A DNA stretch of 32,000 nucleotides from Candidatus Saccharimonadota bacterium (GTDB lineage Bacteria > Patescibacteriota > Gracilibacteria > UBA4473), in assembly GCA_965228485.1 (NCBI GenBank), contig OZ245819.1, forward strand, positions 750,001 to 782,000. Reading direction: 5' to 3'. Shown here piece after piece: positions 4,810-32,000 of this stretch; position 1 is the first letter of the stretch, and each line of letters starts with the position of its first letter. The notes under the pieces are model-generated. The model was not told the DNA's origin. It saw only the letters and a list, made by a program, of their open reading frames with translations, and did no database searches. The position numbers were made by a program, and so were the translations under genes.

Positions 4810-4867
4810 TTTTTAAATATCAATGTCATCTATTGATACGCAAAAATAAAAATTCTATTTCACTTTT

Positions 4868-6019: not shown

Positions 6020-6036
6020 GCTTCTTAGATTAAATG

Positions 6037-6066
6037 AAAAAGAGCTCTTTTTAAAGAGCTCTTTTT
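6037..6066. terminator. Bidirectional Rho-independent terminator
   Basis: AAAAAGAGCTCTTT-TT-AAAGAGCTCTTTTT. The arms are perfect reverse complements (up to 14 bp) and are flanked by A/T runs on both strands. It lies 24 nt downstream of the 6090..6578 gene stop. Confidence 0.7.
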
Positions 6067-6089
6067 ACGATTAAACCACGCACTATAGT

Positions 6090-6578: not shown

Positions 6579-6580
6579 AA

Positions 6581-7249
6581 TTATTTTATTAAATTTCTAT
6601 GAGACAACCGTCTTAGCCAAACATTCATCATGTTTATTTCTTCTACTTGAGCATCAATAATCTCTCGCGCGAGTCTTTTAACCGTCGTATCTTTTCCATG
6701 CTCTAGTACCAAATTAGCCATATCCACGGCCCCTTGATGGTGGGGAATCATCCCCTTAACAAAATCAATATCTGCTTGCCCAGAAAAATCGATACTCATC
6801 CCCTGGTGCATTTTGTGATTTATACGTTTCCAAGCCAGAACACTCATTGGAACTCTTTCTCCATTCCATTGCTGTTCTAAGCTTTTTAACTTTCTCTGCA
6901 TAATTCCAATTTCAATATTCTGAGAACGAATAACTCCCTGAGAAAGTGATTTAATAGCCCCATCTTTTCCGTGAGCTAGTTGAACTAGCGCCATATCTAC
7001 AGCTCCCTGGTGATGAGGAATCATCCCTTTTAAAAAATCGATATCAGGGTCTCCCGTAAAATCAATATTCATCCCTTCATGCATAGTATGATTAATATGC
7101 ATAAAAACTTCGGTAACAAGATCCTTCTTTTTATGATCTTGAGAGGTCATTGAATGCATATGATGAGACATTGTACCTTCATGTTGCATCTGCGCTCGAG
7201 CACTAAAAGTACCAAGTAAAAATAAAATAGTTAAACAGTATTTCATCAT
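6581..7249 (-). CDS. Secreted DUF305 family protein with Met/His-rich N-terminus
   Basis: A signal peptide is followed by MQHEGTMSHHMHSMTSQDH. There are two copies of DIDF-x-KGMIPHHQGAVDMA, the DUF305 signature (from memory). Its stop is 2 nt from the start of the next gene. Confidence 0.85.
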   Translation of the reverse strand: MMKYCLTILFLLGTFSARAQMQHEGTMSHHMHSMTSQDHKKKDLVTEVFMHINHTMHEGMNIDFTGDPDIDFLKGMIPHHQGAVDMALVQLAHGKDGAIKSLSQGVIRSQNIEIGIMQRKLKSLEQQWNGERVPMSVLAWKRINHKMHQGMSIDFSGQADIDFVKGMIPHHQGAVDMANLVLEHGKDTTVKRLAREIIDAQVEEINMMNVWLRRLSHRNLIK

Positions 7250-7293
7250 TAAAAAACATTAAATAATAAATATAAAAAAATATTATTTAATGT

Positions 7294-7656
7294 CTAAAGC
7301 CGCAGACGTACGGTCTCAGCAAAAATATCTTCCGCTAAATATAGATAAGTCGGTGGAGGAAGATTTGTACCAACAAATATATGTGCAAGACTTATTTCAG
7401 ACACTACAAATATATGCTTCGCCAATACCGCTAAAAAAACCGTATCGATATCAACTGAAGCAGTACTGACAAATGTCTCATCCCAAATATCTTGAGCAAT
7501 TTTACACGCCCCACAAGGAACATCTTTGGCCTGCAGTACCTCTCCATGGCAAGGCATAATAACAACTCCTGCCTCTACCTCCAAGGGCATAAAAACAAGA
7601 CAGGCTAAACTCAATAGCTTTACAAGAATTGTGGCAAAAGCAAAAGGCAACCTCAT
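7294..7656 (-). CDS. Hypothetical exported/membrane protein with Cys motifs
   Basis: Hydrophobic N-terminus, then MPCHG and CGAC motifs. Same strand as the DUF305 gene and 44 nt upstream of it. The track start at 7659 is TTG; the ATG is at 7656. Confidence 0.5.
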   Translation of the reverse strand: MRLPFAFATILVKLLSLACLVFMPLEVEAGVVIMPCHGEVLQAKDVPCGACKIAQDIWDETFVSTASVDIDTVFLAVLAKHIFVVSEISLAHIFVGTNLPPPTYLYLAEDIFAETVRLRL

Positions 7657-7664
7657 CAACTTCC

Positions 7665-7670
7665 AATCTA
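7665..7670 (-). promoter_or_regulatory. -10 box (TAGATT), 8 nt before ATG 7656
   Basis: Minus strand: TAGATT-GGAAGTTG-ATG. It lies in a 41-bp divergent intergenic region. Confidence 0.4.
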
Positions 7671-7680
7671 TCCCATTTTT

Positions 7681-7689
7681 TGGTAAAAT
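7681..7689 (+). promoter_or_regulatory. Extended -10 box (TGgTAAAAT), 8 nt before ATG 7698
   Basis: TGGTAAAAT-AAAGTGAA-ATG. Confidence 0.45.
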
Positions 7690-7697
7690 AAAGTGAA

Positions 7698-8801
7698 ATG
7701 ATGGACTTCATAAAAAAAGTAATACGATTTTTTTCCAGGTTTACTGATGATACAGAGAAACTGTGTTACCAGTTTTTTATAAATCTTTCTCCAAAATCTG
7801 ATCATAAAACTGCTTCGGAAAGAGCTAAAAATATATTACAAAAAAATACTCCTCGAGCCCTTATGATTCTTGAGTGGAAGTTCAAAGGATATACCCAACT
7901 CACTAAAGGATACCGAAAAAAATGTTATGAAGATCTACTAATTCTTACCAAAGACTTTGAAGATTTTTACCAAGAAAAAAATATCGATTCTGAAGAAAAA
8001 TTTTTAAAAATTATTTCAGACTATCTGCACAAACATCGCCCGATAGAATATAAGGCTGGAGCTAGCTTTGATAAACTCCTTAAAAATCCTAAAGAAAAAA
8101 AACTGATCGGAGACTGTAATCAGATCACCTCCCTTTACATCTACTTCTTCAGTCTTAAATACGATATTTCTACGCTAAAGTTAAAACTTCTCCCGGGTCA
8201 CGTGTGCCTCCACCATGAAGGAACAGACTATGAAACTACCACTGGACAAATCAGCGTTTATAAAGAGTTTGAAAGACTGGCCCCAATAGAAGAAATTATT
8301 GCCGTCAATATCTTGGATACGTCCGACTATAGTGAAAATCAACACCCACTTCCCCCGGAAAACCGTTTGCAGTGTGCAGAACTAGCTATTGTTTTTTCTG
8401 GAAACAAAGAGCTTGCTCAACAGAATTTAGATGCGGCCTATCACAACCTTGCTATTCACGAAATGAACAGAAATCATTTTAAACAAGCAGCAAAGTGGGC
8501 TGAAAAAACGGAAGACAAGGCGCTCCTTGATGTCATCCTTCATAATGAAGCCGTTTATGAATTAAATCACAAACATTATGACAAAGCTCGTAGAATTTTT
8601 AAGAGACTTCATGATAAAGCGGGAGCAAAGGCTGTGGACCAAAAAGAACTTAATAGCCTTCTGGAAAAACTCAAAGGCTGTAAAACTACACAAGATTATA
8701 AAAATAAACGTACAGTAATTTATAAAATCAAAAAACTAGCACTTACTCTACACGATCGAGAAATACAAAAGTTTTGTGAAAATATTCTGAAACAAATTTA
8801 G
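7698..8801 (+). CDS. Hypothetical protein with a putative transglutaminase-like Cys-His-Asp core and TPR-like C-terminal helices
   Basis: 367 aa. LIGDCNQITSLYIYFF...LLPGHVCLHHEGTDYETT fits the G-x-C ... GH ... D spacing of transglutaminase-like cysteine peptidases (from memory). The C-terminal half has helical repeats (AAYHNLAIHEMNRNHFKQAAKWAEK; HNEAVYELNHKHYDKARRIFKRL). Confidence 0.55.
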   Translation: MMDFIKKVIRFFSRFTDDTEKLCYQFFINLSPKSDHKTASERAKNILQKNTPRALMILEWKFKGYTQLTKGYRKKCYEDLLILTKDFEDFYQEKNIDSEEKFLKIISDYLHKHRPIEYKAGASFDKLLKNPKEKKLIGDCNQITSLYIYFFSLKYDISTLKLKLLPGHVCLHHEGTDYETTTGQISVYKEFERLAPIEEIIAVNILDTSDYSENQHPLPPENRLQCAELAIVFSGNKELAQQNLDAAYHNLAIHEMNRNHFKQAAKWAEKTEDKALLDVILHNEAVYELNHKHYDKARRIFKRLHDKAGAKAVDQKELNSLLEKLKGCKTTQDYKNKRTVIYKIKKLALTLHDREIQKFCENILKQI

Positions 8802-10785: not shown

Positions 10786-12675
10786 ATGCGGTTCAACCTT
10801 GGATTAAAATCTCACTTTCTTGAGCAAGAATACTTATGCACAAATGGAATTGGGGGTTTTTGCAGTAATACTGTACTAAATACAAACACCCGAAAATATC
10901 ATGGCGTTCTTTGTGCTAGCTTGACACCGCCGACCGATAGACAGCTGATCCTGAACCATTTGATTGAAACTATAAAAGTTGAGACCAAAGAAATTCCACT
11001 TTCACAAGAACTCTACCAGAGAAAGCCTGAAATAGAATCACTTCCCCCCCTACAAAGCTTTACTGTAAAGCCTTTCCCCAATTGGCAATACGAAGATCAT
11101 CGTTTTAGCCTGAAAAAAGAATGTTGGATGACTCCTGGTGAAAATACAACAAATATTACCTATACCAATACCGGAAAGAGCAACTTAACATTAAATCTTA
11201 AACCTCTTCTAAGCCTAAGAGGATATCATGGGCTAAGACAGCAACAAATCAATATCGAGAGTGAAATTTTGCTTAAAAAGCTCCTCATAAAGTCCGATGG
11301 ATTTCCTATAATTTCTATTGGCTATTCTCGAGGACAGTGGACAAGTCATGGTCATTGGTATGAGAGTTGCTATTACCCAGAAGAAAAATTACGTGGATAT
11401 GATTCCTCAGAAGATAACTTTTGCCCTAAAGAACTGACTGTTGTTTTAGCTCCTCAAGAAAATCTAGAGCTACAAATTTCAGTTGAGACAAACCCACTCA
11501 ACATAAAACAATCACTAAAACAGTTAGAAAAGCGTAACAAAAAACTTACGAAGAATAGCCAATCAACCTGGGAAGAAAACCTTACCCTATCGGCCAATCA
11601 ATTTATTGTTGAACGCAAATCTATTAATGGAAAAACTATTCTCGCAGGATATCCATGGTTTACTGATTGGGGGAGAGATACTCTTATTTCCTTAAGAGGA
11701 TTTCAATATTTTTTAGATAAAAAAGATATCCAATCAATTATTTTCGCTTTTCTTGAACATGAAACCAAAGGGCTTATTCCAAACCGTTTTCCTGATAACC
11801 CAAATGACCATATCGAGTATAACACGGCTGATGCGACTCTATGGATTTTTGTAATACTGAAAGAAATTTTTGATTTTAAGAAAGATAAGCGCTTTATCAA
11901 AAAAATCACTCCTATATTGCAAAAAATTATAAACCACCATATAGAAGGGACCTCTCATGGAATTAAGTGTGAGGAAAATGGATTACTCCAGGCTAACTCT
12001 CCTGGATATCAACTAACCTGGATGGATGCAAAAATAGGTAATGAAGTCATAACTCCTAGGTCAGGATTTCCAGTAGAAATTAATTGCCTCTGGTATAACG
12101 CTTTGAAGATTTTTTATGAAATTGATTCCTTCGATCAAAGAATAGAAAAAATAATTAACAGATTTGAGAACAGCTTTGAAAAACATTTTTGGATAGAAGA
12201 TTCACTAGCTGATTTTTTAACTCCCGATTTAGCTCAAAACACCCAAATTAGACCCAACCAAATTTGGGCTCTTAGTCTTCCTTTCTCTCCGTTATCAACA
12301 CAGCAACAAGAAAGCATTCTGAATAATGTAAGTAAGCACTTATACACTCCTTTGGGATTGAGAAGCTTAGAAGAAAATGACAACGAATTTCAAGCCTACT
12401 ATCAAGGAGGTGCTGTGACGAGAGACCGGGCTTATCACCAAGGAACCGTTTGGACTTACCTGCTGCTAGATTACTGGAAGGCTTACAAAAAAATACATGG
12501 AAATATCACCCCTCTTAAAAAAGATCTCGAAGTGCTTAAGAATCATTTCTATCAAGATGGATGTCTACATGGTGTTTCTGAAGTATTCGATGGTAAAACT
12601 CCAAAAAGAGGAAAAGGTTGTATTAATCAAGCCTGGAGTGTAGCCGCCTTACTCTGGATAGAGAACAACCTATAA
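10786..12675 (+). CDS. Glycogen debranching enzyme (amylo-alpha-1,6-glucosidase type, with GDE N-terminal domain)
   Basis: 629 aa with GYPWFTDWGRDTLISLRG, YHQGTVWTYLL and NQAWSVAA blocks of the (alpha/alpha)6 GDE_C fold. It starts 17 nt after the deaminase gene. Confidence 0.88.
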   Translation: MRFNLGLKSHFLEQEYLCTNGIGGFCSNTVLNTNTRKYHGVLCASLTPPTDRQLILNHLIETIKVETKEIPLSQELYQRKPEIESLPPLQSFTVKPFPNWQYEDHRFSLKKECWMTPGENTTNITYTNTGKSNLTLNLKPLLSLRGYHGLRQQQINIESEILLKKLLIKSDGFPIISIGYSRGQWTSHGHWYESCYYPEEKLRGYDSSEDNFCPKELTVVLAPQENLELQISVETNPLNIKQSLKQLEKRNKKLTKNSQSTWEENLTLSANQFIVERKSINGKTILAGYPWFTDWGRDTLISLRGFQYFLDKKDIQSIIFAFLEHETKGLIPNRFPDNPNDHIEYNTADATLWIFVILKEIFDFKKDKRFIKKITPILQKIINHHIEGTSHGIKCEENGLLQANSPGYQLTWMDAKIGNEVITPRSGFPVEINCLWYNALKIFYEIDSFDQRIEKIINRFENSFEKHFWIEDSLADFLTPDLAQNTQIRPNQIWALSLPFSPLSTQQQESILNNVSKHLYTPLGLRSLEENDNEFQAYYQGGAVTRDRAYHQGTVWTYLLLDYWKAYKKIHGNITPLKKDLEVLKNHFYQDGCLHGVSEVFDGKTPKRGKGCINQAWSVAALLWIENNL

Positions 12676-14109
12676 AGGCTTAATATTTTGTCCTTCTGCA
12701 CCATCAAGCACCTGATAGCCGAAAGCTTTAATCTCATCTCTCAACCGATCTGATTCTTCCCAATTTTTTTCAGATCGTGCAACTGTTCGAGCTTCTATAA
12801 GTTTTTGAACCGCTTCTGGAATTTCTGCTACTTTAACTTCCGTATCAAGTACTTCAAAAATATTATTAAAGTCTGTTTCAAAGAAAGCTAAAAAATTATC
12901 TCGAGCTTTAGAAGAGAGTGTTTTACTTTCTACAGCATGAGTCGCATACTTTAAGAGTAAAAATACGATCCCTAGAGCTTCTGAAACATTTAGATCATCA
13001 AACAAAGCCTGATTAAAATTTACAGAAAAATTATCATGCAGCTCTCCATCAATTCCACCAATAGCTGGTTCATAGTTTTTCACCCTCTGGTAGGTTTCGT
13101 TAATTTTAGTAATTGATTTTCGAGCATCCTCTAAAGCTTTCTCCGTAAAGTTAAAAGCTGTTCTATAGTGAGCTGTCATTAACGCATACCGAATTTCTTC
13201 TCCTGTCCATCCTTTGTCCAATAAATCTCGAATAGTAAAAAAATTCCCTTTGGATTTAGACATTTTCTGACCATCCACAAGCAGATGTTTTGCATGCATC
13301 CAATAGGGAATTTTCATTCCACAACCACACTCATTTTGGGCAATTTCACACTCGTGATGTGGAAAAATATTATCTTCTCCTCCCGTGTGAATATCAACAT
13401 ATCCCAAAATAGCATGACTCATGGCACTACATTCAATATGCCATCCGGGAAACCCTCTTCCCCAAGGACTATCCCATTGCATTAGATGGTTTTCATCGGC
13501 CTTTTTCCAAAGAGCGAAATCAAGTGGGTTTTCTTTCTCATCATTAACTTCCACCCTAGCTCCAGCCTGCAAATCTTCAAGGTTATTCTTAGAAAGCTTT
13601 CCATAGTCTTCAAATTTTGTCGCACGAAAATAAACCGATCCCTCAACATGATAAGCAAAGCCTTTGTTGATCAAGTCTTCTGTTAGACTTATCTGTTCCT
13701 GAATAAAATCTGTTGCTTTTGGTCTGTGATGCGGAGGTGAAATTTTTAGTTTTGCTTCATCTTCTAAGAAGTAATTCGTAAATTTCTCCGCCACAGCAAA
13801 AGCGTCTACCCCTTCTGCCTTAGCTTTTTTTGCAATCTTGTCTTCACCATCTGCATCTGCAAAATCATCATTTGTTAGATGTCCAACATCCGTAATATTT
13901 TGAACCTTAACCACCTCATAATTAGCTAATTTTAAAGTTCTAAAAAGCAAATCTGACATTAGAAAAGATCGAAAGTTTCCAATATGAGCAAAGTCATAAA
14001 CCGTCGGCCCACAAGAATATAAATGCACCTTTCCTTTGGTGTTTAGTTTTTCTTCCAGTAATTCTTTTTTTCCCGTTAACGTATTGTAGATATAAACCAA
14101 TTCAGCCAT
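12670..14109 (-). CDS. cysS: Cysteine--tRNA ligase
   Basis: AHIGNFRSF (HIGH-type motif), FPGWHIECSAM and KMSKSKGN. The track start at 14127 is TTG; the ATG at 14109 gives MAELVYIYNTLTG. A TAGGAT box (14122..14117) lies 7 nt upstream of that ATG. Confidence 0.93.
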   Translation of the reverse strand: MAELVYIYNTLTGKKELLEEKLNTKGKVHLYSCGPTVYDFAHIGNFRSFLMSDLLFRTLKLANYEVVKVQNITDVGHLTNDDFADADGEDKIAKKAKAEGVDAFAVAEKFTNYFLEDEAKLKISPPHHRPKATDFIQEQISLTEDLINKGFAYHVEGSVYFRATKFEDYGKLSKNNLEDLQAGARVEVNDEKENPLDFALWKKADENHLMQWDSPWGRGFPGWHIECSAMSHAILGYVDIHTGGEDNIFPHHECEIAQNECGCGMKIPYWMHAKHLLVDGQKMSKSKGNFFTIRDLLDKGWTGEEIRYALMTAHYRTAFNFTEKALEDARKSITKINETYQRVKNYEPAIGGIDGELHDNFSVNFNQALFDDLNVSEALGIVFLLLKYATHAVESKTLSSKARDNFLAFFETDFNNIFEVLDTEVKVAEIPEAVQKLIEARTVARSEKNWEESDRLRDEIKAFGYQVLDGAEGQNIKPL

Positions 14110-14140
14110 TGTTAAAATCCTATTCAAACCACTTTATTTA

Positions 14141-16012: not shown

Positions 16013-16167
16013 AATATCGTGTATATAAAAGGAGCCAAAGCAGAGCCTTGGGTAAAAACAATTAATAAGCCCAGTAGAACCAAAATCAGAACTAGGGGCA
16101 GCATCCAAAATTGCTTACGCTCAAAAATAAAGTGAAAAATATCCTTAACGGTTTTGAATTTACTCAT
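16009..16167 (-). CDS. DUF5989-like small membrane protein (52 aa), missed by the ORF track
   Basis: MSKFKTVKDIFHFIFERKQFWMLPLVLILVLLGLLIVFTQGSALAPFIYTIF*. The pattern ...RK-x-x-W-x-LP ... G-x-L-I-V-x-TQGSA-x-APFIYT-x-F matches DUF5989, which accompanies carbamoyltransferase genes (from memory). The ATG overlaps the upstream gene stop by 8 nt. Confidence 0.6.
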   Translation of the reverse strand: MSKFKTVKDIFHFIFERKQFWMLPLVLILVLLGLLIVFTQGSALAPFIYTIF

Positions 16168-17326
16168 CCTGCACATTTTGTGATTTCACAAGAATTTTAT
16201 CAAGTAAAATATTGGCCACTAGTTGATGTCCATAACGATCAAAGTGAGGGTCTGCATTATGCTGAAAAAAGATATCGGTTCTTCTTTTGTCTGCTCTAAA
16301 CTCTGGTAGCAAATCCAAACAAGATAAACCTCGTGCTTCGCAAAATTTTTTCATTAATGTTTGAGGCCTATCTGCCTCTCTCGCCTCTTCATTGAAGTGC
16401 ATAATAGCATATTTTTTATCATATACACTATCAACCTGAACATCCATCGGAATAAAAACATAAAGCACTGGAACTTCCTTTTTTTCTGACCATCTAACCA
16501 TCCGTTCCCAAGCTACAAAAAACTTTTCCCAATAGATTGGTAAGTTATCGTCATATCCTTCATCTTGTGGAGATAAGAAAACGGGCCAGGTGAGAGTTGG
16601 CTGATCCTTATCAGCCCGAATAATATTCCATTTATGCCCAAGGATTAATAATCGTTTTTTCAGCTCTTCCCAAGCAAGCCATTCGGGCCGAATCTGCATC
16701 CAGCTTTCAAGCTTATCATCTTTATTCACAAATATCTTTAAGTCTTTTACCGCTAAAATGTCATCATCAGCTTCTAGCCATTCTTTTCGCCGAAATTCAG
16801 TTATATCATTAGCGACAAAAATATTCACAATTATCAATTCTGGATCGAGCACTTTTTCATACTTTTTTGCCAGTAAATAATAGTTATCAATGGAGTGCCC
16901 GATATGACCAGCATTCCAGACTTCCCAGTTTTCTTTAATATTTGGAGACAGCTGATTCATACGCTGTTCAAGCTTTTCTGTAAAAGTTTCGTGCTGATCT
17001 ATTCCAGTTCCAAAAGTAAAAGAATCCCCAAGCATAAGAACATTTTTTTGAAATGGATTGGGAATAAACTCTTCATCTCTAAACCCAAGATTATTAATAC
17101 TAATTTCAGGAATAGGATCTCCATAACCATTCTGCGCTCTACTCCCTGGTTTATGGGCATAAGTATTAATACTGTCGGCAACAAAGATTGGGATACCAAC
17201 GGCTGAAACAGAACGACGAGCATTTTCCGTATTCTTTTCTAGATAAGACTCAAACGCCAAAAACAAAGCCAAAGAAAAGAGCCCTAAAAAAAATAAATTC
17301 CAAAATAATACCTTCAAAAATTTCAT
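16160..17326 (-). CDS. Membrane-anchored SGNH/GDSL-type hydrolase or acyltransferase-like protein
   Basis: 388 aa with an N-terminal TM helix, VLMLGDSFTFGTG (GDS block I) and C-terminal NADPHFDRYGHQLVA (D-x-H block V-like). Confidence 0.6.
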   Translation of the reverse strand: MKFLKVLFWNLFFLGLFSLALFLAFESYLEKNTENARRSVSAVGIPIFVADSINTYAHKPGSRAQNGYGDPIPEISINNLGFRDEEFIPNPFQKNVLMLGDSFTFGTGIDQHETFTEKLEQRMNQLSPNIKENWEVWNAGHIGHSIDNYYLLAKKYEKVLDPELIIVNIFVANDITEFRRKEWLEADDDILAVKDLKIFVNKDDKLESWMQIRPEWLAWEELKKRLLILGHKWNIIRADKDQPTLTWPVFLSPQDEGYDDNLPIYWEKFFVAWERMVRWSEKKEVPVLYVFIPMDVQVDSVYDKKYAIMHFNEEAREADRPQTLMKKFCEARGLSCLDLLPEFRADKRRTDIFFQHNADPHFDRYGHQLVANILLDKILVKSQNVQDE

Positions 17327-19364: not shown

Positions 19365-20825
19365 TTAAACAAAAGTGCTTAACCGTTCTAAAGTTTCTTC
19401 TTTTCCTAAGATTTCAGCAATCTCAAATGGCCCTGGAGAACGCTCCAAACCAGAAATAGCGACTCTAAACGGCCAAAGAAATTGTCCATTTTTAAGCCCC
19501 ATTTCACCAATTTTCTCAATGGATAGTTCTCGAATTTTTTCTTTATTAAAATCGGCTTCATCCAGATTTTGCAACAAGGTGTTAACTTCCAAAATAACTT
19601 GCTTAGCCAAATCTAAATCCACTTTCATCTTCTCTGATGTAAGGAGTGAAAAATCTGGAGCCTTATAATCAAAAAAGCAGGTCATTTCATTAGCAAAGTC
19701 TGAAAATACTTTCGCTTTTTGATGCACTATTTCCACGATGCTTTTTAATTTTTCTCGATCAGTTAAATACTGAGACTTTAATTCTGATCCCTCATACTGC
19801 TCAGCCCAATCGATAAAGGATTGTGTTAAATCTTCCAAGCCAAATTGCTTCATCCACTGCTGGTTGAACCATTTCATTTTCTCAAAATCATACTGAGCTG
19901 AAGCGGGGTTTACTCCTTTTAAATCGAACACTGAAATTAACGTCTCAAGATCGAAAACTTCTTCTGTATTTTTAGGATTCCATCCCAAAAAGGCTAATCC
20001 ATTTACCACGGCTTCAGGCAAAAAACCTTGTGACTGAAAGTCTTCAATCAAAACTGCCACTCCTGGCTCAACTCTCCGTTTAGATAATTTTCTTTTTTGT
20101 TGATCCAATACCAACGGAATATGCGCATACTGAGGAGGATTCACTTCCAAGGCCTTCCAACAAAGCAATTGTTTCGGGGTATTTGAAATATGATCTTCTC
20201 CTCGAATCACGTGAGTAATCCCTTGAGCATCATCATCAATTACATTCGCGAGTAAATAAAGCACCGAACCATCACTTCGAGCCACAACAAAATCTCCCAA
20301 AGTATCTGAGTTCACTTCATTTTCTCCACGAACTAGGTCTTGGAACGCTAGCACCTCATTCTTTGGGCATCTTATTCTCCAAGCAAAAGGCTTCCCTGAA
20401 TCCATTTCTGTCTCTAATGCAGACTTATCCCAATCTCGAAAGGGAGACCAAAAAACAAAATTTTGTTTATTTTTTTCAGCGTCACTACGAAGTAAGTCTA
20501 ATTCCTCTGGAGTTGTAAAACAAGGAAACACCTTGTCTTCATCCCAAAGTTTTTTTAATACTTCAGTATGATGTTCTAGACTCTCTGTTTGACGAACTAA
20601 AAGATGAGATTCTGAAACAAAATCCATCCCCAACCACTTAAGCCCTTCTAAAATCTCTGTTTCAAACTCTGCTTTTGATCGTTCTTTATCAGTATCTTCC
20701 CAACGGAAAATAATCTTTCCTTTGTGATGTTTAGCAAACAAATAGTTAAAAAGTCCTGTTCGGGCAGTGCCTAAATGCAGGTGCCCAGTAGGAGATGGTG
20801 GCATACGAACAATAACTTCACTCAT
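19365..20825 (-). CDS. gltX: Glutamate--tRNA ligase
   Basis: PSPTGHLHLGTART (HIGH region), KLSKR (KMSKS variant) and a GluRS-type anticodon-binding C-terminus. It ends TAA-TAG immediately before the next ATG. Confidence 0.93.
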   Translation of the reverse strand: MSEVIVRMPPSPTGHLHLGTARTGLFNYLFAKHHKGKIIFRWEDTDKERSKAEFETEILEGLKWLGMDFVSESHLLVRQTESLEHHTEVLKKLWDEDKVFPCFTTPEELDLLRSDAEKNKQNFVFWSPFRDWDKSALETEMDSGKPFAWRIRCPKNEVLAFQDLVRGENEVNSDTLGDFVVARSDGSVLYLLANVIDDDAQGITHVIRGEDHISNTPKQLLCWKALEVNPPQYAHIPLVLDQQKRKLSKRRVEPGVAVLIEDFQSQGFLPEAVVNGLAFLGWNPKNTEEVFDLETLISVFDLKGVNPASAQYDFEKMKWFNQQWMKQFGLEDLTQSFIDWAEQYEGSELKSQYLTDREKLKSIVEIVHQKAKVFSDFANEMTCFFDYKAPDFSLLTSEKMKVDLDLAKQVILEVNTLLQNLDEADFNKEKIRELSIEKIGEMGLKNGQFLWPFRVAISGLERSPGPFEIAEILGKEETLERLSTFV

Positions 20826-20869: not shown

Positions 20870-21946
20870 CTAGCGTCGAATATTCCCAAAAACTCGAGAA
20901 CTAACTGCTGATTGAAAATTAATAAAAGGTTTGCTAGCAGCTTCAAACCCATAACGATCTGGGTTCCGCAACTCTGCATCAATGTAAATAAATACATGTG
21001 GATGAACTTGTGCAGCATCAACCCTAAAATTTAAAAATGGATCGCGACTTGGTCCTGGTTTGAAAACCAAAGCATTAAGTTTCAACGCCAAAGGGGAAAT
21101 GATCGTATAATCATGTCCTCTATCACAAAAATCTTCGTCGGTTTCATCTCCTAAAATTGGATATTGCTCTCCGAGATTATTACCATCAAGGTCTGTAATA
21201 ATTTCACATTCAGAACTACCTGAATCCCACTGCAACAAAACATCTGGATTAGCCCCCAAGTCATTGAAATCTCCATCGTCATTAGCATCATGAGGCCCCC
21301 AAACATCCGCCAATCCATCCCCATCTACGTCCGCTCCAAGCTGCCTTTGAACCTCCACAACATCGTCTGTATCATTAAAACGAATAGCGGTTCTGAGGGT
21401 TCGGCTAGAGTTAATCAAATAGAGCGTCGCCAGGTTAGCCGAAGAATCCCAAGCTTCTGTACAATCATCAACCGTAGTCCCATCTGGCTCCATTCCCCCC
21501 AAATTCCTATCTTGAGTCGTATCACCATTCGTATCCCAATAAAAAATCCCTGGGTAGCTTAGGTCTATGCGGTTATTACGATTTACTTCAGGATTTGCAT
21601 TATCATTATCCAAATTAGCCCCTGCTGGTGCTTGCCGAGCATCAAATGCTGGACAGGATCCACTATTAGGCCCCATTTCAATAAAAAAACGATCATAGTC
21701 AATCGTATTATTTCGAAATATTTGAGCAATTCTCTCCATCAGATAACGGCTTTCGGCATAAAAGTCCTGAGAAAACTGAACTCTTTTTTGGCTAAAATAG
21801 ATAGACCCCACAAGTCCCAAGGCGGAAGTAATAACAATTGAAGCAATTCCTGTAGCCGCCAGCGTTTCAAGTAATGTAAACCCTGACTGTTTTCTTCTGA
21901 AAGCCTCTTTTATTTTTCTAATAAGCATCTCTCTCAAAAAAATCAT
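20870..21946 (-). CDS. Type IV pilin-like/pseudopilin protein with acidic calcium-binding-type loops
   Basis: Prepilin motif KQSG-FTLLETL followed by a hydrophobic helix. The globular part contains DVDGDGLADVWGPHDANDDGDFND (21260..21331), DTNGDTTQD and DLDGNNLGE, which are DxDxDG-like loops. Overlaps the upstream gene by 29 nt. Confidence 0.75.
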   Translation of the reverse strand: MIFLREMLIRKIKEAFRRKQSGFTLLETLAATGIASIVITSALGLVGSIYFSQKRVQFSQDFYAESRYLMERIAQIFRNNTIDYDRFFIEMGPNSGSCPAFDARQAPAGANLDNDNANPEVNRNNRIDLSYPGIFYWDTNGDTTQDRNLGGMEPDGTTVDDCTEAWDSSANLATLYLINSSRTLRTAIRFNDTDDVVEVQRQLGADVDGDGLADVWGPHDANDDGDFNDLGANPDVLLQWDSGSSECEIITDLDGNNLGEQYPILGDETDEDFCDRGHDYTIISPLALKLNALVFKPGPSRDPFLNFRVDAAQVHPHVFIYIDAELRNPDRYGFEAASKPFINFQSAVSSRVFGNIRR

Positions 21947-22715
21947 ATAAATGTGCTTCTAATGTACTCGTGCGAGTCCTTCCTTCTTCCTTCCACTGAA
22001 CTTTAGAGACCACTTTAATATGTCCCTCCTCACAATTATTTGTGCCATCACGATCTTCATTTGAAACACAAGTTGAATTCACTCCATCACAGAAACAAGG
22101 TGTACTTCCGCCATTATATGGATTTAATTTTTCTATATAAATCTGTCTATGAAATTCTGTACGACCATTTCCTGCATCCGTATATGTATAACGATTGGTT
22201 GATGGATCAATAAACAAACGATAAAACGGATGCGGATCTGGCCCTGTAGAAATATCTATCTCACTTTGAGAAATAGTTCCACCGCCTTCTTCATTTAGGC
22301 TTAAGTAATACCTTCCACTTGCATCATTAAACTCGACTAAATAGTAAGTTCCTGTATCACCACTATCGATTGTGTTCCCAGTGGTTGTGTTAAGACAAGA
22401 GTTTGGATCCCCAGTGGTGTCAAGACAAAGCCATTTTCCACGTCGATCTCCCGAATACTTTAGCCAATTTGTATCCCGAATATTTCTAACGGCTTCAATT
22501 CCTTCTCGAGCTATATTAAGCGCAATAATTCTATTTTTGACATTAGCATTGGTCCTGACCGCTCGGTCTAAGATACTAAAAGTGGCAATAAGCACCGTAG
22601 AAAGCAAAGCTGTAGCAATAACGACCTCTAATATTGAATCTCCTCTCAACTTTGAAGTTAAGTTCTTACCATTAAAAAATGATCTTATCTTTTTCATTTT
22701 TAGTAAGTCTGACAT
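21918..22715 (-). CDS. Pilin-like protein with atypical prepilin motif
   Basis: KLRG-DSILEVVIATALLSTVLIA: Gly at -1 and Glu at +5 followed by a hydrophobic helix, but Asp at +1 instead of Phe/Met. The C-terminal part is Cys-rich. An alternative ATG at 22697 would remove the 16-nt overlap. Confidence 0.6.
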   Translation of the reverse strand: MSDLLKMKKIRSFFNGKNLTSKLRGDSILEVVIATALLSTVLIATFSILDRAVRTNANVKNRIIALNIAREGIEAVRNIRDTNWLKYSGDRRGKWLCLDTTGDPNSCLNTTTGNTIDSGDTGTYYLVEFNDASGRYYLSLNEEGGGTISQSEIDISTGPDPHPFYRLFIDPSTNRYTYTDAGNGRTEFHRQIYIEKLNPYNGGSTPCFCDGVNSTCVSNEDRDGTNNCEEGHIKVVSKVQWKEEGRTRTSTLEAHLYDFFERDAY

Positions 22716-25167: not shown

Positions 25168-25581
25168 ATGTCACTCCCCCAAAAACCAATGCTTAGCGAT
25201 GTAGATCCAATTGAACGGTCTGCTGTTGCTGAATCTAAGGATTGGGAAACGTTAGAAGAAATTATCGAAAAACCATTAAGAGCCGCCATGCATGATCTTT
25301 GGGAAAAAGGCATTAAAACATGGCAGTGCTCAGCAAACCGAAAAGATATTTCAAAAGGGATAGTCTTTTTTGAGATTAGAGCTGACAAAGAATTTCTATC
25401 TCAAGAGAATTACGACATAGCCATGGCTAATCAGGGAGAAGAAATTAAGCGGGGGGAATTTTCATTTTTTAGATTCAGTAAACCAATCTCTGGGAATGTT
25501 GAACTAGCTACCATCGTTACTTGGTCACGCTCAGTTTCGAATATGTTTCAATCCCAAAAATTACAAAAAGTCCTTTTATAA
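25168..25581 (+). CDS. Hypothetical protein (137 aa)
   Basis: ATG ORF with its own -10 box. No family recognised. Confidence 0.55.
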   Translation: MSLPQKPMLSDVDPIERSAVAESKDWETLEEIIEKPLRAAMHDLWEKGIKTWQCSANRKDISKGIVFFEIRADKEFLSQENYDIAMANQGEEIKRGEFSFFRFSKPISGNVELATIVTWSRSVSNMFQSQKLQKVLL

Positions 25582-25654: not shown

Positions 25655-25963
25655 ATGAAAAAACTTTATAAACTTTCTTCAACCACTCCTTCAACTCACA
25701 TATTTCACGAAGGAAATCAGTTTGAACTTTGTTTTGATACTCCAGATGAAGATATCGAAAGCGTACAGTCCGAACTACAAAGACTTACAAAATTGTTGCA
25801 AAGCTATGATCGTTTAGATGATGAAATCGATGATCAGTGGGCTAGCCAGGCTCAAATCAGCGAGGCTCAAGAGGAACAACAACTCATTCTATCTCAAGCA
25901 GGTTTCACCATCAGAAGTGGACTATCGGATAAAATTAAAGAACTGGAAGACAAGTTAAAATAA
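25655..25963 (+). CDS. Hypothetical acidic, probably coiled-coil protein (102 aa)
   Basis: ATG ORF, D/E/Q-rich with heptad-like helical stretches. No family recognised. Confidence 0.55.
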   Translation: MKKLYKLSSTTPSTHIFHEGNQFELCFDTPDEDIESVQSELQRLTKLLQSYDRLDDEIDDQWASQAQISEAQEEQQLILSQAGFTIRSGLSDKIKELEDKLK

Positions 25964-28405: not shown

Positions 28406-31400
28406 ATGAAACAACCTTTTTTTACCGCTCCCGATCCTAAAAAATCTGTAAATGAGACTGAACTAGAAGTCTTAAATTTTTGGAAAGACAGCAATGTTTT
28501 TCAAGAGTCTGTTGAAAGTCGAAATCCAAATAATGAATTTGTATTTTTTGACGGTCCACCATTTGCTACTGGAACTCCTCACTACGGACATATTTTGGCA
28601 GGAACAATAAAAGATGCCATTCCTCGTTATTGGACTATGAAAGGATACCGAGTGAATCGAAAATTTGGATGGGACTGTCATGGTCTTCCCGTAGAATATC
28701 AGGTTGAAAAAGAACAGGCCATCGGTGGAAAACCTGGGATCGAAGCTATGGGAGTGGATAAATTCAATGAAATGTGTCGATCCATTGTTCTTCGCTGTCG
28801 AGATGAATGGGAAGATACCGTTGATAGAATGGGCCGTTTTGTAGACTTCAAAAACGATTATAAAACCATGGATTCTGAGTTCATGGAATCTGTTTGGTGG
28901 GTCTTCCAATCTCTTTGGGACAAAGGGCTTATCTACGAAGGGGAAAAAGTCGTTCCCTATAGTCCAAAACTTGGAAGTCCATTATCCAATTTTGAAGCTA
29001 ATCTAAACTATAAAGACATCGATGATCCCGCGGTAACCGTTAAATTTGAAATCTTGGACGAGGTTACATCTAAACCCGTGAACGATAAAAAAACTTATTT
29101 TCTTGCCTGGACAACAACCCCTTGGACACTCCCAAGTAATATTGCTCTGGGCTTTGGAAAAAATCATCAGTACATCCTGTTAGAACATGAAGGCGCTTAC
29201 TATTGGATAGCGGAAGATGCGGCCACAAAGTACTTTCCTGAAGATTTTGAAATTTTAGATCGACGTCTTGGGCATGAGTTTTTAAACGTCTCTTACAAAC
29301 CTCTCTTTAATTTTTTTACTAATGGTGAAGAAAAACGATTTATCTGTCTTCACGACGATGGAGATTACGTAACCACAGAATCCGGGACGGGGATTGTACA
29401 CTTTGCCCCTTCCTTTGGAGCAGAAGATGCTGAGCTTTGCGCAAAATTTGATGTATTTGGAGTCAATCCTATTGATGAAAATGGTTACTTCACAGACCAA
29501 ACTCCGCCGTTAGAAGGAAAATATTTCCGAGCCGATGAAGAAATAAAAGGATCAAAAGAAGATAATGCTAACACGTGGGTAATGCAAGATCTAAAAGAAC
29601 GAGGATTACTCTTTAAGCGAGATCAAATTCGCCATCAGTACCCGTTTTGTTGGAGGACAGATTGTGCTCTGATGTATCGAGGAATTAAGACCTGGTTTGT
29701 GAAAGTCAGCCAGATAAAAGAAGACCTTATTGCTAATAACCAAAACATTAATTGGACACCTTCGCACCTAAAAGATGGACGATTTGGAAAAATTCTTGAA
29801 AGCGCTCCCGATTGGGCCATCTCTCGAAACCGATATTGGGGATGCCCACTGCCTATTTGGCGTTGTGATAAAACTGGAGCCATTGAAGTCATTGGTTCTA
29901 GGGAAGAACTAGAAGCTAAAACAGGACAAACCGTAGAAGATCTTCACAAACACTTTGTTGATGAGCTCACTTGGGAAAACAAAGAAACAGGTGGGACCAT
30001 GAGAAGAATCCCGGAGGTTCTTGATTGTTGGTTTGAGAGCGGAAGTATGCCCTATGCCAGCAGACATTTTCCATTTGAAAAAGAACATGATCAGTCTGCA
30101 CAAGACTTCCGAAGTGCCAACTTTATTTCCGAAGGGATGGACCAAACTCGAGGGTGGTTTTACACTCTTCACGTTCTAGGAACGGCTTTGTTTGGTAAAA
30201 ACATCTTCGATAATGTCATCTGTAGTGGAATAGTTTTGGCAGAAGACGGAGAAAAAATGTCAAAATCCAAAAAAAACTATCCTGACCCAGGACTAATCTT
30301 TGAAAAATATGGAGCGGATGCCATGCGTTTTTACCTTCTACAATCTCCTGTGGCAACAAAAGGAGAAAATCTAAAATTTTCAGAAAGGGAAGTTGAGGAA
30401 GTTCTAAAAAATATCATTCTTCCATTAAAAAATGCATACCAGTTTTTATCAATGTATGCCAATATCGATGGTTGGGCACCAACGAAGTTTACACTTATCC
30501 GACACGGAGAGGCTGAGCACAATGTAGCCCGCATCTATTCTGGGAAAGCCTCAAACCCACACCATTTAACCAAAGATGGGAAAGTTCAAGCTGAAAAATT
30601 AGCCCAGAACATTACCCCAGTAGACGTCCTTGTGGCTTCTCCACTAGTACGGACACAAGAGACCGCTAAAGTAATTGCCGAAGTACAAGGTTTTAACGAA
30701 AAAATTATAACCGACGAACGATTTAAAGAAGTAGACTTTGGTGAACTTGAAGGGAGGACCTACATTGGACCAGAGCAAAGATTAAAAGAACCTTCTACCG
30801 AGCCATTAGAATCAATTCAAAAACGTTCTCTGGCTGGACTCAAAGAATTAAAAGAAACTCATCAAGGTTCACACATCGGAATTGTAAGTCATGGAGGGAC
30901 AATACGTAGCCTCCAAACAGCTTTACACGGAATCACGAAACAAGAAAAACACTTGGAGTTTCCAGCGATTGGAACTGGACAATCTCAGATTGCATTCTGC
31001 CCACCTGAAAGTGAAAATGAACTGGATCAATGGATTATGTCTGAATTACAGACACTAATTGAAAACTACAAAACAGACTTCGATCAATATGATACCGAAG
31101 GCGCGTGTAGGGCAATCTTGCCATTTATTGATAAACTAAATAATTGGTACTTGCGACGAAGCCGAAAGCGATTCTGGGCTGAAGGCTTGGATGCCGATAA
31201 GCAAAATGCCTACGAAACTCTACACTATACACTCTTTACGGTGAGTAAAATTCTAGCACCAATTATGCCATTTTTTGCTGATTGGCTTTACCAGAAAACT
31301 TCTGGTGAACAAAGTCGATCTGTTCATGTAGATTTTGTCCCATTTTCTATAACATCATATAAAAATGAAGCATTAGAAACAAAAGTGGGACTTGCTCGAG

Positions 31401-32000
31401 ACATTGTTCGGCTTGCCGCTTCTATTCGATCTCGTCAAAAAATAAAATTAAGACAACCACTACAAAAACTGCAGTTTGCTCTTACTCAAGAGGCGGATCT
31501 AGATCTTGAAACTATTGCCAATGAAGCCAATGTAAAAAAAGTTGAAATCCTCCAATCAGTTGATGGTATTGCTCAACAAATTATTAAAGTTGATGCCCGG
31601 AAAGTAGGACGAAAATTTGGAAAGAAAGTCCAAACATTAATCCAAGCAGGAAAGTCTGGTGATTTCAGTATCCTGCCAGACGGAAAAGTCGAAATCATGG
31701 ACGAAGTACTCGAAGCTGATGAATACGAGTTAGCTTTTATTACCGAAGAAGGAGTAGAGGCCGACGCCACCCCAGATGTAGTTGTGATTCTCAATACTGA
31801 AATAACAGAAGACTTAGCCCAAGAAGGACTTAGTCGAGAAGTTATCAGAAGTATTCAAGACTTAAGAAAACAAACCGGATTTGAAATTAGTGATCGCATT
31901 GAAATTATATTTGAAACTAATGATGAAATGCTCAAAACGATGTTTGTAAGTTTTGGGGATAACATTGCTCAAGAAGTTCTTGCTACAAATATTACAGAAG
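28406..32000 (+). CDS. ileS: Isoleucine--tRNA ligase, type 2 (eukaryote-like), with an inserted histidine-phosphatase domain; 3' end beyond the window
   Basis: My manual translation is open from ATG 28406 (in-frame TAA at 28385) to the window end, 1198 codons. It is absent from the ORF track only because there is no stop in the window. Motifs: FVFFDGPPFATGTPHYGHILAGTIKD (HYGH at 28580-28591), WTTTPWTLPSN, GWDCHGLPVE, DWAISRNRYWG, KMSKS (30254-30268), NNWYLRRSRKRFW, and a C-terminal EGLSREVIRSIQDLRKQTGFEISDRI. Confidence 0.95.
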   Translation, partial: MKQPFFTAPDPKKSVNETELEVLNFWKDSNVFQESVESRNPNNEFVFFDGPPFATGTPHYGHILAGTIKDAIPRYWTMKGYRVNRKFGWDCHGLPVEYQVEKEQAIGGKPGIEAMGVDKFNEMCRSIVLRCRDEWEDTVDRMGRFVDFKNDYKTMDSEFMESVWWVFQSLWDKGLIYEGEKVVPYSPKLGSPLSNFEANLNYKDIDDPAVTVKFEILDEVTSKPVNDKKTYFLAWTTTPWTLPSNIALGFGKNHQYILLEHEGAYYWIAEDAATKYFPEDFEILDRRLGHEFLNVSYKPLFNFFTNGEEKRFICLHDDGDYVTTESGTGIVHFAPSFGAEDAELCAKFDVFGVNPIDENGYFTDQTPPLEGKYFRADEEIKGSKEDNANTWVMQDLKERGLLFKRDQIRHQYPFCWRTDCALMYRGIKTWFVKVSQIKEDLIANNQNINWTPSHLKDGRFGKILESAPDWAISRNRYWGCPLPIWRCDKTGAIEVIGSREELEAKTGQTVEDLHKHFVDELTWENKETGGTMRRIPEVLDCWFESGSMPYASRHFPFEKEHDQSAQDFRSANFISEGMDQTRGWFYTLHVLGTALFGKNIFDNVICSGIVLAEDGEKMSKSKKNYPDPGLIFEKYGADAMRFYLLQSPVATKGENLKFSEREVEEVLKNIILPLKNAYQFLSMYANIDGWAPTKFTLIRHGEAEHNVARIYSGKASNPHHLTKDGKVQAEKLAQNITPVDVLVASPLVRTQETAKVIAEVQGFNEKIITDERFKEVDFGELEGRTYIGPEQRLKEPSTEPLESIQKRSLAGLKELKETHQGSHIGIVSHGGTIRSLQTALHGITKQEKHLEFPAIGTGQSQIAFCPPESENELDQWIMSELQTLIENYKTDFDQYDTEGACRAILPFIDKLNNWYLRRSRKRFWAEGLDADKQNAYETLHYTLFTVSKILAPIMPFFADWLYQKTSGEQSRSVHVDFVPFSITSYKNEALETKVGLARDIVRLAASIRSRQKIKLRQPLQKLQFALTQEADLDLETIANEANVKKVEILQSVDGIAQQIIKVDARKVGRKFGKKVQTLIQAGKSGDFSILPDGKVEIMDEVLEADEYELAFITEEGVEADATPDVVVILNTEITEDLAQEGLSREVIRSIQDLRKQTGFEISDRIEIIFETNDEMLKTMFVSFGDNIAQEVLATNITE
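30485..31006 (+). other. Histidine-phosphatase (PGAM/CobC/SixA superfamily) domain inserted in IleRS (residues about 694-867)
   Basis: KFTLIRHGEAEHN (RHG motif), LVASPLVRTQETAKVIA (second catalytic Arg), EVDFGELEGRT (conserved Glu block) and IGIVSHGGTIRSL (C-terminal catalytic His). The flanks are the IleRS blocks ...NAYQFLSMYANIDGWAPT and ENELDQWIMSELQTLIENY... Confidence 0.8.

Follow-up and report, generated by a model that had tools for sequence, protein, structure and literature searches.

The locus examined here raises two linked questions: whether a histidine phosphatase is genuinely encoded within the reading frame of an isoleucyl-tRNA synthetase (IleRS) and, if so, what it would do there. 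Aminoacyl-tRNA synthetases are known to acquire accessory domains. The locus lies at the end of a 32,000-nucleotide stretch of DNA from a Candidatus Saccharimonadota bacterium (contig OZ245819.1, positions 750,001 to 782,000), which as a whole is referred to below as the window. An initial annotation, made from the sequence alone, had proposed an embedded histidine phosphatase and knew of no described synthetase that carries one. Our literature search likewise found no published description of a catalytically intact phosphatase nested in an aminoacyl-tRNA synthetase, though public databases do show such proteins.

The host synthetase and the limits of the insert

The ileS gene of the window (28406..32000; this and all features below are on the forward strand) comprises 1198 of the 1220 codons of a type-2 isoleucyl-tRNA synthetase, the rest being cut off by the window edge. 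Translation bore out the single open frame noticed at the outset: frame 1 is open for 1198 codons from position 28406 to the window edge, and the full-length protein (P0021, 1220 aa) is 100% identical to the window ORF. The product passed the NCBIfam model TIGR00392 (ileS) with 891.6 bits against a cut-off of 621.4, the insert splitting the match into two stretches, and matched Pfam tRNA-synt_1 at aa 22-650. The HYGH, editing and KMSKS motifs of a type-2 enzyme named in the initial annotation were all located by translation. The class I signature HYGH (HIGH; aa 59-62, 28580..28591) is invariant at H59, Y60, G61 and H62 in 45 sequences. The CP1 editing motifs WTTTPWTLPSN (aa 235-245) and GTGIVH (aa 327-332) span 29108..29401, and the family alignment of IleRS shows invariant editing residues at W235, T236, T237, P239, W240 and T241 as well as at G327, T328, G329, V331, H332 and D341. 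In the KMSKS loop (aa 617-621, 30254..30268), K617, S619 and K620 are invariant. The anticodon-binding helical domain restarts past the insert (aa 874-1021, 31025..31468; Pfam Anticodon_1, PF08264, E 9e-29) and is followed by the type-2-specific C-terminal tRNA-binding domain (aa 1035-1196, 31508..31993; DUF5915, PF19302, E 1e-26). An AF2 model of the full-length protein reached a pLDDT of 85.9 and a pTM of 0.79, and its best Foldseek matches were the P. megaterium IleRS2 structures 8c8v/8c9d (TM over target 0.80-0.81). Model score, HIGH and KMSKS signatures, CP1 editing motifs with their Asp, anticodon and C-terminal domains and overall fold all agree with a type-2 enzyme; the window gene is a complete type-2 IleRS, predicted from these features to be editing-competent.

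The nested domain occupies aa 691-866 (30476..31003), where it replaces a loop of about seven residues that links helices 1 and 2 of the anticodon bundle. The Pfam search proposed in the initial annotation gave a highly significant match to His_Phos_1 (PF00300) at aa 696-847 (E 2.2e-30; 106-112 bits against a gathering cut-off of 21.7), in keeping with the intact branch-1 histidine phosphatase predicted in frame inside IleRS. The limits were set, as also proposed there, by alignment with homologues that lack the insert: P0078 has seven residues at this point, and L082-L084 join the equivalents of window residues 692-696 straight to 868-869. The place in the sequence originally given for the insertion was thereby upheld, together with the claim that ordinary IleRS have only a short loop here, whereas its limits (30485-31006, aa 694-867) required a small correction. 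In the AF2 model the insert lies between the bundle helices H660-688 and H872-893 with pLDDT values of 90-97. Its first (694-699) and last (860-863) strands are adjacent, which would enable the domain to bud from the loop, and a phosphatase of about 170 aa is thus predicted to fold independently of the synthetase that carries it.

The junctions read ...DGW|APTKF... and ...AFCP|PESEN..., and an identical junction (690/864) was found in 62 IleRS sequences from NCBI, JGI, ENA and Logan. L001 and L002 have the phosphatase insert at 53-54% identity, and the junction recurs in two GTDB species genomes; the syntenic L081 is without insert. That an assembly chimera, a frameshift or a mis-join fakes the fusion is always a prior possibility for metagenome-derived sequence, and nothing else was found in its favour. 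Against it stand the recurrence of one junction in 62 proteins that were assembled independently and come from four data sources, the syntenic relative with seven residues instead, a continuous frame, uniform composition with no GC shift at the insert, and a model that is confident across both junctions. We therefore regard an assembly artefact as effectively refuted. An intein, a homing endonuclease or a mobile-element insertion was also rejected for the window, which gave no Hint or endonuclease Pfam match, and no flanking repeats beyond chance were found at the insert. The repeats that the search did return, a single imperfect 21-nt inverted repeat with 81% complementarity and short direct ones, are consistent with chance.

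Catalytic residues and nearest relatives of the nested domain

The four signature blocks on which the histidine-phosphatase assignment had been based are all at the places given for them (LIRHGEAEHN at aa 697, SPLVRTQETA at 745, DFGELEGR at 777 and VSHGGTIR at 827). The RHG motif begins with R699 and H700 (30500..30505), the latter being the predicted phospho-accepting nucleophile. N706 (30521..30523) and R749 (30650..30652, in SPLVRTQETA) are the Asn and the second Arg of the phosphate pocket, E775 (30728..30730, in KEVDFG) is the predicted general acid/base, and H829 (30890..30892, in VSHGG) is the second catalytic His. These six residues are invariant in 62/62 copies at this insertion site (site C, see below), which are only 35-57% identical, and nearly invariant at the other insertion sites too; G701 is kept in 61 of the 62. 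RHG, N706, R749, E775 and H829 align to PspA and to 9mmh. One assignment had to be changed: the catalytic Glu, previously placed in the DFGELEGR block, is E775 of KEVDFG, which corresponds to the catalytic Glu of PspA and is invariant, whereas E780 is variable and E782 mostly conserved. The complete catalytic set and the strong purifying selection on it make the nested phosphatase very probably active rather than a relic, and to this extent the activity expected in the initial annotation was supported. In the site-C clade the cap is shorter, with 54 residues between Glu and His vs 62-65, which could admit larger substrates.

With a model of the domain alone, the top Foldseek matches were PspA (4ij5/6), PhoE (1h2e), HFP (9mmh), GpgP and CobC, with probability 1.00, and the sequence matches agree with this list. 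The nearest relatives of the insert by sequence and by fold are small-molecule phosphatases. The earlier description of a PGAM/CobC/SixA-type core thus stands as regards the branch-1 catalytic set but not as regards kinship with SixA-type protein phosphatases. Assignment to individual families was rejected in each case. The SixA phosphohistidine phosphatase model (TIGR00249) gave 28.8 bits against 74.5, over the N-terminal 66 residues only, and SixA is absent from the top fold matches. For the CobC alpha-ribazole phosphatase (TIGR03162) the score was 76.5-83.4 bits against 162.9 and there is no cobalamin operon context; the true CobC homologues P0012-P0019 are encoded in CobU-CobT-CobS-CobC operons. 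The 2,3-BPG-dependent phosphoglycerate mutase (dPGM_arch, 72-77 bits against 225), the phosphoserine phosphatase PspA (57-64 against 350) and GpmB (53-60 against 261) fell short likewise.

A homologue search with the insert alone returned free-standing proteins at no more than 40% identity, a limit of the word index having caused the embedded copies to be missed; these emerged when the full-length protein was used as query. The closest free-standing homologues (P0001, P0002 and P0005; 34-41% identity) have the signature 'RHGEAEHNV...HLT' in common with the insert and are encoded 0.7-3 kb upstream of an insert-free ileS. All instances of this neighbourhood belong to a single group of related contigs, and ancestry alone may explain it. 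Free-standing tandem double-phosphatase proteins (about 410 aa) also appeared among the top representative matches; their contexts are unrelated and non-CPR, so that they are uninformative for the insert.

Occurrence of nested domains among CPR synthetases

A search of IleRS homologues for the same insertion had been suggested in the initial annotation. The insertion proved to be no singular oddity but a common and conserved architecture of CPR IleRS, the phosphatase domain being present in 103 of the 120 closest IleRS. One to four copies occur per protein, at three main loop regions that divide by sub-site into five clades: site C falls within the anticodon-binding domain, A and B within the catalytic domain close to the acceptor end. 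In unbootstrapped NJ trees the copies group by insertion site into these five clades, interleaved with free-standing forms, and a single capture followed by intragenic spread may account for the pattern. Within the Gracilibacteria/Peribacteria-type CPR IleRS clade the insert is a module of long standing that has been passed on vertically, and it could serve as a lineage marker for CPR phylogeny. It has been secondarily lost in P0078 and P0081, which indicates that the module is dispensable.

The association appears to be confined to IleRS. When 1.84 billion representatives were searched, all hosts above 450 aa in length within the best 150 were IleRS. CysRS served as the specificity control since the retrieved loci contained no CPR ValRS or LeuRS; an extra domain was found in 0/120 CysRS relatives from the same genomes, and the CysRS and GluRS of the window are normal. 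The IleRS relatives themselves carry further inserts of GNAT, HAD, PNK-like kinase, serine-hydrolase and nuclease or transposase types, and modules in the same loops include a DUF559 nuclease, an IS200-type Y1 transposase and a MuF_C-like domain. In P0083 a double HAD domain stands in for the phosphatase. The best PDB match of the P-loop kinase inserts of sister IleRS is Pnkp1 (4xrp; E 1e-5 and 7e-4) and their best NCBIfam match is the Ser-tRNA(Sec) kinase PSTK (4e-10), both below family cut-offs. A GNAT domain occurs in P0027 and P0032 and accompanies the phosphatase in relatives, one of which is auto-annotated by JGI as 'isoleucyl-tRNA synthetase/phosphohistidine phosphatase SixA/GNAT'. The window protein itself does not belong to the IleRS-with-GNAT family (NF040702; 287.5 bits against 1999) and gave no GNAT Pfam match.

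Possible roles and comparison with known systems

The explanation that we favour, tentatively and at somewhat short of even confidence, is that the protein is a bifunctional synthetase-phosphatase in which a PhoE/PspA/CobC-type domain is inserted into a type-2 IleRS and most likely acts on a small molecule. By the mechanism of its superfamily the insert would be a phosphomonoesterase, and this is what would make the whole protein bifunctional. His700 would attack the phosphate and form a phospho-histidine intermediate, Arg699, Asn706, Arg749 and His829 would grip the phosphate, and Glu775 would protonate the leaving group and activate water. The substrate might be a small phosphorylated nucleotide or metabolite, and IleRS might serve as a scaffold that ties the dose and location of the phosphatase to the isoleucine-charging machinery; both suggestions carry low certainty. 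Compared with a small molecule, tRNA or protein seems to us the less probable direct target, again with low certainty. Whatever the substrate, the link between phosphatase and IleRS is real, as follows from the three loop regions, the presence of up to four copies, the HAD replacement in one relative and the free-standing homologues beside ileS.

tRNA-end repair had been among the speculative roles of the initial annotation. An RNA-directed role of this kind, in which IleRS would recognise tRNA(Ile) and the phosphatase would strip 2'/3'- or toxin-added phosphate from it, strikes us as unlikely, yet it has the most to commend it among the alternatives. In relatives the phosphatase would, by analogy to T4 or bacterial Pnkp, partner the nested PNK-like 5'-kinase. 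The exclusive association with IleRS fits this proposal, as do the Pnkp1- and PSTK-like kinases of sister enzymes, the replacement in P0083 by a HAD phosphatase, the class found in T4 Pnkp, the position of site C in the anticodon-binding domain and of sites A and B near the acceptor end, and the shortened cap at site C. However, the kinase matches are weak, and no kinase is present in the window protein; the insert is neutral to acidic rather than basic (net charge about 0, clade mean -2.3), a charge that lends no support to RNA binding; the phosphatase has no match among the anti-phage systems in PADLOC; neither a ligase nor a cyclic phosphodiesterase was seen as a partner; and we know of no branch-1 histidine phosphatase that acts on RNA ends. 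The small-molecule character of the nearest relatives slightly weakens both tRNA-end repair and kinase-toxin reversal, the other role suggested initially, but the PNK-like inserts keep the tRNA idea alive. The IleRS exclusivity and the PNK/PSTK-like kinases would be explained by action on tRNA no less well than by action on a metabolite. In a broader and somewhat less probable version, CPR IleRS would be a modular platform for the maintenance of tRNA(Ile), whose phosphatases, kinases and GNATs act on tRNA(Ile) or Ile-tRNA(Ile), healing nuclease-cut or toxin-phosphorylated ends or modifying the charged tRNA.

Two further explanations were weighed. In class I synthetases other than IleRS, HipA-type kinases hit a KMSKS-loop Ser, and the histidine-phosphatase superfamily includes the protein phosphatases SixA, PGAM5 and Sts-1. 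The insert, tethered covalently about 70 residues past KMSKS, might accordingly dephosphorylate IleRS itself (e.g. at a KMSKS-loop Ser) or a partner, in regulation or antitoxin-like protection, and the kinase inserts of relatives could complete a kinase/phosphatase pair. This we hold to be very improbable: the SixA score is far below its cut-off and the top fold matches include no protein phosphatase, the same domain occurs at three or more distant loops, which disfavours a fixed cis geometry, and we know of no kinase toxin that targets IleRS. It is only a little less doubtful that IleRS is a permissive landing pad, with a phosphatase retained for reasons that do not concern IleRS or only as a structural or dimerising element, and with some inserts selfish. 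His_Phos_1 enzymes are often dimers, many unrelated inserts share the same loops, gain and loss are patchy, and relatives without the insert are viable. But a passenger would hardly keep six catalytic residues absolutely over deep divergence, a pattern that argues for selected catalysis, and the non-homologous replacement of the phosphatase points to selection for activity. Neither CysRS, the sole other family examined, nor the window GluRS shows comparable insertion.

IleRS, apparently alone, emerges as a hotspot of enzymatic elaboration across ultra-small, host-dependent CPR bacteria, with nested phosphatases in up to four copies beside nested kinase, acetyltransferase and hydrolase domains. 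Action of the phosphatase on tRNA(Ile), IleRS or a by-product of the reaction would reveal a new layer in the quality control or defence of translation; a housekeeping enzyme carried along by IleRS would be a striking case of function packaging in minimal genomes. A tRNA(Ile) maintenance platform, if real, would represent RNA repair or anti-toxin activity embedded in a synthetase, a class not known before, and would contain the first RNA-directed branch-1 histidine phosphatase.

Known systems resemble the protein in parts. Its entire host architecture, with a Rossmann fold bearing HIGH and KMSKS, CP1, a helical anticodon domain and a type-2 C-terminal domain, is common to P. megaterium IleRS2 (8c8v/8c9d), yeast IleRS-tRNA (8wnd) and T. 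thermophilus IleRS (1ile) at 32-34% identity, but in these solved enzymes the loop between helices 1 and 2 of the anticodon-binding bundle contains no domain, and their length is about 1030 aa, compared with about 1214 aligned columns for the window IleRS. The insert has its fold and catalytic set in common with PhoE (1h2e/1ebb), PspA (4ij5), the riboflavin-pathway HFP (9mmh), CobC (6e4b, 6nru) and GpgP Rv2419c (4qih), at 24-32% identity and an rmsd of about 3 Å over 166-171 columns; these are free-standing enzymes of 177-215 aa with defined substrates, whereas the insert is nested, has a shorter cap and scores below all of the equivalog cut-offs. T4 Pnkp, bacterial Pnkp1 (4xrp) and the HD domain of the E. 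coli CCA-adding enzyme offer an analogy, and only that, for a phosphatase (with a kinase) on a tRNA-handling protein: their phosphatase folds are HAD, metallophosphoesterase and HD, unlike the insert, and the window protein is without a kinase. A CobC-like phosphatase is fused to a nucleic-acid enzyme in the RNase H / acid phosphatase of the M. tuberculosis Rv2228c type (NF005567, matched over its phosphatase half at E 2e-21 to 6e-23), but that fusion is terminal and involves another partner enzyme, whereas the present domain is nested and scores 77-82 against a cut-off of 326. The curated precedent for IleRS with an extra enzyme domain is NF040702, 'isoleucine--tRNA ligase, N-acetyltransferase domain-containing'; unlike this GNAT variant, for which a curated model exists, the phosphatase variant had neither a curated model nor a paper that we could find.

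Host enzyme and boundaries of the nested domain

The initial annotation described one frame, open from 28406 to the window edge, encoding a type-2 isoleucyl-tRNA synthetase (IleRS) interrupted by a histidine-phosphatase domain at 30485-31006. Translation of this gene (ileS, 28406-32000, + strand) gives 1198 stop-free codons, and a 1220-aa protein from a public collection (P0021, on a 1.295-Mb contig) is 100% identical to it. Pfam resolves the product into tRNA-synt_1 (aa 22-650), His_Phos_1 (aa 696-847; E 2.2e-30), Anticodon_1 (aa 874-1021) and the type-2-specific DUF5915 (aa 1035-1196), all on the + strand, which bears out the proposed phosphatase identity. The NCBIfam ileS equivalog is passed at 891.6 bits (cut-off 621.4), the match being split in two by the insert. 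HYGH (aa 59-62), the editing motifs WTTTPWT (aa 235-241) and GTGIVH (aa 327-332) and KMSKS (aa 617-621) are invariant in a 45-sequence family alignment. As host signatures, editing motifs and equivalog assignment are all present, the host looks like a fully functional, editing-competent enzyme. Stop-codon counts (TAA 14, TAG 11, TGA 2) and a coding density of 93% are consistent with the standard genetic code. In the CP zinc knuckle (29864-29989, aa 487-528) three of four cysteines are lost, C487 being kept and positions 490, 525 and 528 reading T, N and T; the full set of four is present in 36 of 45 relatives.

The boundaries of the insert were set by insert-free relatives. P0078, which is 65% identical and whose locus is syntenic (GluRS, pilin-like genes, LepA, Band_7, ileS), has 7 residues in place of window aa 691-866, and in three IleRS that are more distant (L082-L084) window 692-696 runs directly into 868-869. 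The insert therefore comprises aa 691-866 (30476-31003, + strand; ~170 residues), matching the span first proposed. When the 1198 residues were modelled with AlphaFold2 (mean pLDDT 85.9, pTM 0.79), the insert was predicted with pLDDT 90-97. It opens with strand 694-699, closes with strand 860-863 and is flanked by the first two helices of the anticodon-binding bundle, the long helix 1 (660-688) and helix 2 (872-893). The best PDB matches of the model, P. megaterium IleRS2 and yeast IleRS-tRNA, share its overall fold but have nothing at the insert loop.

An identical junction (window 690/864) occurs in 62 distinct IleRS sequences drawn from assemblies in NCBI, JGI, ENA and Logan. A junction-spanning query matched the genomes of two GTDB species, one MAG from Peribacteria and one from Gracilibacteria, end to end at 53-54% identity, and both have the same Pfam architecture. 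GC content is even along ileS, and repeats flanking the insert are at chance level only. Together these observations exclude the chimeric assembly about which the initial annotation had cautioned, and make an artefact a practically negligible explanation. An imperfect 21-nt inverted repeat (30445-30465 / 31115-31135; 81% complementary), which brackets the insert ~10-110 nt outside its ends, was judged to be due to chance.

Active site, distribution and phylogeny of the nested phosphatases

The six active-site residues of branch-1 histidine phosphatases (R699, H700, N706, R749, E775 and H829) are invariant in all 62 copies at the window site, which are only 35-57% identical to the window domain, and nearly so in copies inserted elsewhere; the inserted domain is almost certainly catalytic, as judged from this conservation. 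The earlier claim of a full catalytic set thus stands, but alignment to the Glu of PspA places the catalytic glutamate at E775 in KEVDFG, not in the DFGELEG block. By the superfamily mechanism, His700 would form a phospho-histidine intermediate, with phosphate held by Arg699, Asn706, Arg749 and His829 and Glu775 serving as acid/base. The nearest solved proteins by sequence and fold are small-molecule phosphatases, namely PspA phosphoserine phosphatase, PhoE, 9mmh (a riboflavin-pathway histidine-family phosphatase), GpgP, CobC and TIGAR. In NCBIfam, the insert falls short of every one of the equivalog cut-offs set for CobC, SixA, dPGM, PspA and GpmB; by sequence criteria it is a superfamily member outside every characterised subfamily.

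The initial annotation suggested looking for the same insertion in homologues, and the phenomenon proved much wider than the single window case. Among the 120 closest IleRS from a search of 5.8 billion proteins, 103 contain at least one nested phosphatase domain (one copy in 85, two in 15, three in 3); a search of 1.84 billion proteins added a representative with four copies, and others with tandem copies inside a single loop. Proteins with multiple or tandem copies, up to four, include P0142, P0047, P0056, P0102, P0150, P0143 and P0158; copies within a single protein are only 25-35% identical to the window domain. In window numbering, the copies occupy three loop regions: site C, that of the window (690/864; 62 copies), site B (about 557-568; 17 copies) and site A (502-532, with sub-sites 502, 506/512 and 523/532; 42 copies). 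Site A lies inside the CP zinc-knuckle region, where the inserts of other CPR fall between the two Cys pairs, and is the standard position in genomes of Taylorbacteria, Saccharibacteria, Paceibacterota and Nomurabacteria. Across 80 fetched genome loci, the domain was absent from the IleRS of Planctomycetota, archaea and other non-CPR lineages. A 3.2-kb contig binned as Candidatus Nitrosotenuis, a thaumarchaeal MAG (L037), encodes an IleRS of CPR type that has a site-A phosphatase, and is probably mis-binned. One Saccharibacteria IleRS with a site-A phosphatase (L028) is spread over two overlapping ORFs in different frames (4432-7278 and 7091-8215), the catalytic and anticodon-binding parts being separate, which could reflect a frameshift or sequencing error, or a gene that is genuinely split. 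Two unusually long Planctomycete ORFs (L046 2728-7542, 1605 aa; L048 3529-7545, 1339 aa) contain other extra sequence and no histidine phosphatase.

An unbootstrapped neighbour-joining tree groups the copies into five clades, strictly according to insertion site, and free-standing enzymes are interspersed among these clades. An IleRS-core tree, also unbootstrapped, nests the insert-free P0078 and P0081 within the site-C clade and shows a patchy scatter of additional A and B copies, a topology which argues that gain, duplication and precise loss are all ongoing. The copies may still descend from a single capture followed by intragenic spread.

Restriction to IleRS, free-standing homologues and other inserts

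The best 150 cluster representatives matching the window phosphatase, from a search of 1.84 billion proteins, include no host longer than 450 aa other than IleRS and fragments of it. As a control, the 120 closest relatives of the window CysRS, many on the same long contigs as the IleRS matches, contained no extra domains (0/120); CysRS (12670-14127, - strand) and GluRS (19365-20825, - strand) of the window and ArgRS of related loci are ordinary. The host is a complete IleRS, the phosphatase active site is complete and under strong purifying selection, and their association is IleRS-specific. These three class I synthetase genes of the window (CysRS, GluRS, IleRS) lie within 20 kb, separated by two pilin-like N_methyl proteins, LepA, a Band_7 protein and an MgtC/DUF4010 protein, an order that recurs in L081, L001 and L002. 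No Pfam match was obtained for five window ORFs, 102-388 aa in length (7698-8801, 25168-25581 and 25655-25963, + strand; 16160-17326 and 21918-22715, - strand).

The closest free-standing homologues (P0001, P0002 and P0005; 34-41% identity) share an unusual 'RHGEAEHNV...HLT' signature. Their gene order is conserved, running SmpB ... ArgRS, small ORF, His_Phos, one to four variable genes and insert-free ileS, with the phosphatase gene on the ileS strand and 0.7-3 kb upstream. Phosphatase genes in this neighbourhood lie at L082 7022-7615, L083 5375-5950, L084 10001-10570 and L085 8122-8691, and NUDIX or RecO genes follow ileS. Genes fused in some genomes and adjacent elsewhere classically signal a functional link; the neighbouring gene could reflect such a link or the origin of the insert. 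More distant matches are true CobC genes in cobalamin operons. About 45 cluster representatives (P0146-P0275; roughly 410 aa) are free-standing proteins with two tandem histidine-phosphatase domains, found in non-CPR contexts with no ileS nearby (L091-L095).

In related IleRS (P0129, P0106, P0083, P0074, P0084, P0032 and P0075) the same loops receive RimI-like GNAT acetyltransferases, a double HAD phosphatase (in an IleRS without histidine phosphatase), a serine hydrolase and P-loop kinases; a DUF559 nuclease, an IS200-type Y1 transposase and a MuF_C-like module occur elsewhere in the protein. The 1790-aa P0129 combines four different inserts: transposase, phosphatase, GNAT and kinase. Both kinase inserts have the RNA-repair kinase Pnkp1 as top PDB match (E 1e-5 and 7e-4, below cut-off), and one has the Ser-tRNA(Sec) kinase PSTK as top NCBIfam match, also below cut-off. 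Nuclease and kinase inserts (P0106 aa 254-436 and 1142-1397; P0083 aa about 970-984) have similar Pro/Gly-rich flanks (SSPLTRGGGGV, PPPTPPYQGEG, PNPLPGGEGA) that look like translated repeat elements. A mobile-DNA mechanism is hinted at for some of the insertions.

Possible substrates and relation to known synthetases

We tentatively favour a small phosphorylated molecule as substrate, with IleRS as scaffold, since the close relatives of the insert are all small-molecule enzymes, the insert is not basic, and the domain functions from loops far apart in structure and is dispensable in some lineages. The main rival, tRNA(Ile) end healing or toxin reversal, is supported by the exclusivity to IleRS, the PNK-like kinase inserts, the HAD phosphatase substituting for the histidine phosphatase and the shortened cap in the site-C clade; we consider it somewhat unlikely. 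That the domain is a passenger or plays a structural role seems improbable, and dephosphorylation of protein in cis very improbable.

Full-text literature searches found no published description of a phosphatase-bearing IleRS. The family has been partly noticed by database curators, given an NCBIfam model 'IleRS, N-acetyltransferase domain-containing' and a JGI auto-name of one relative, 'isoleucyl-tRNA synthetase/phosphohistidine phosphatase SixA/...GNAT'. The architecture is genuine and widespread, and it is specific to IleRS. Accessory domains are already known from synthetases; a nested, multiplied histidine phosphatase is new among them.
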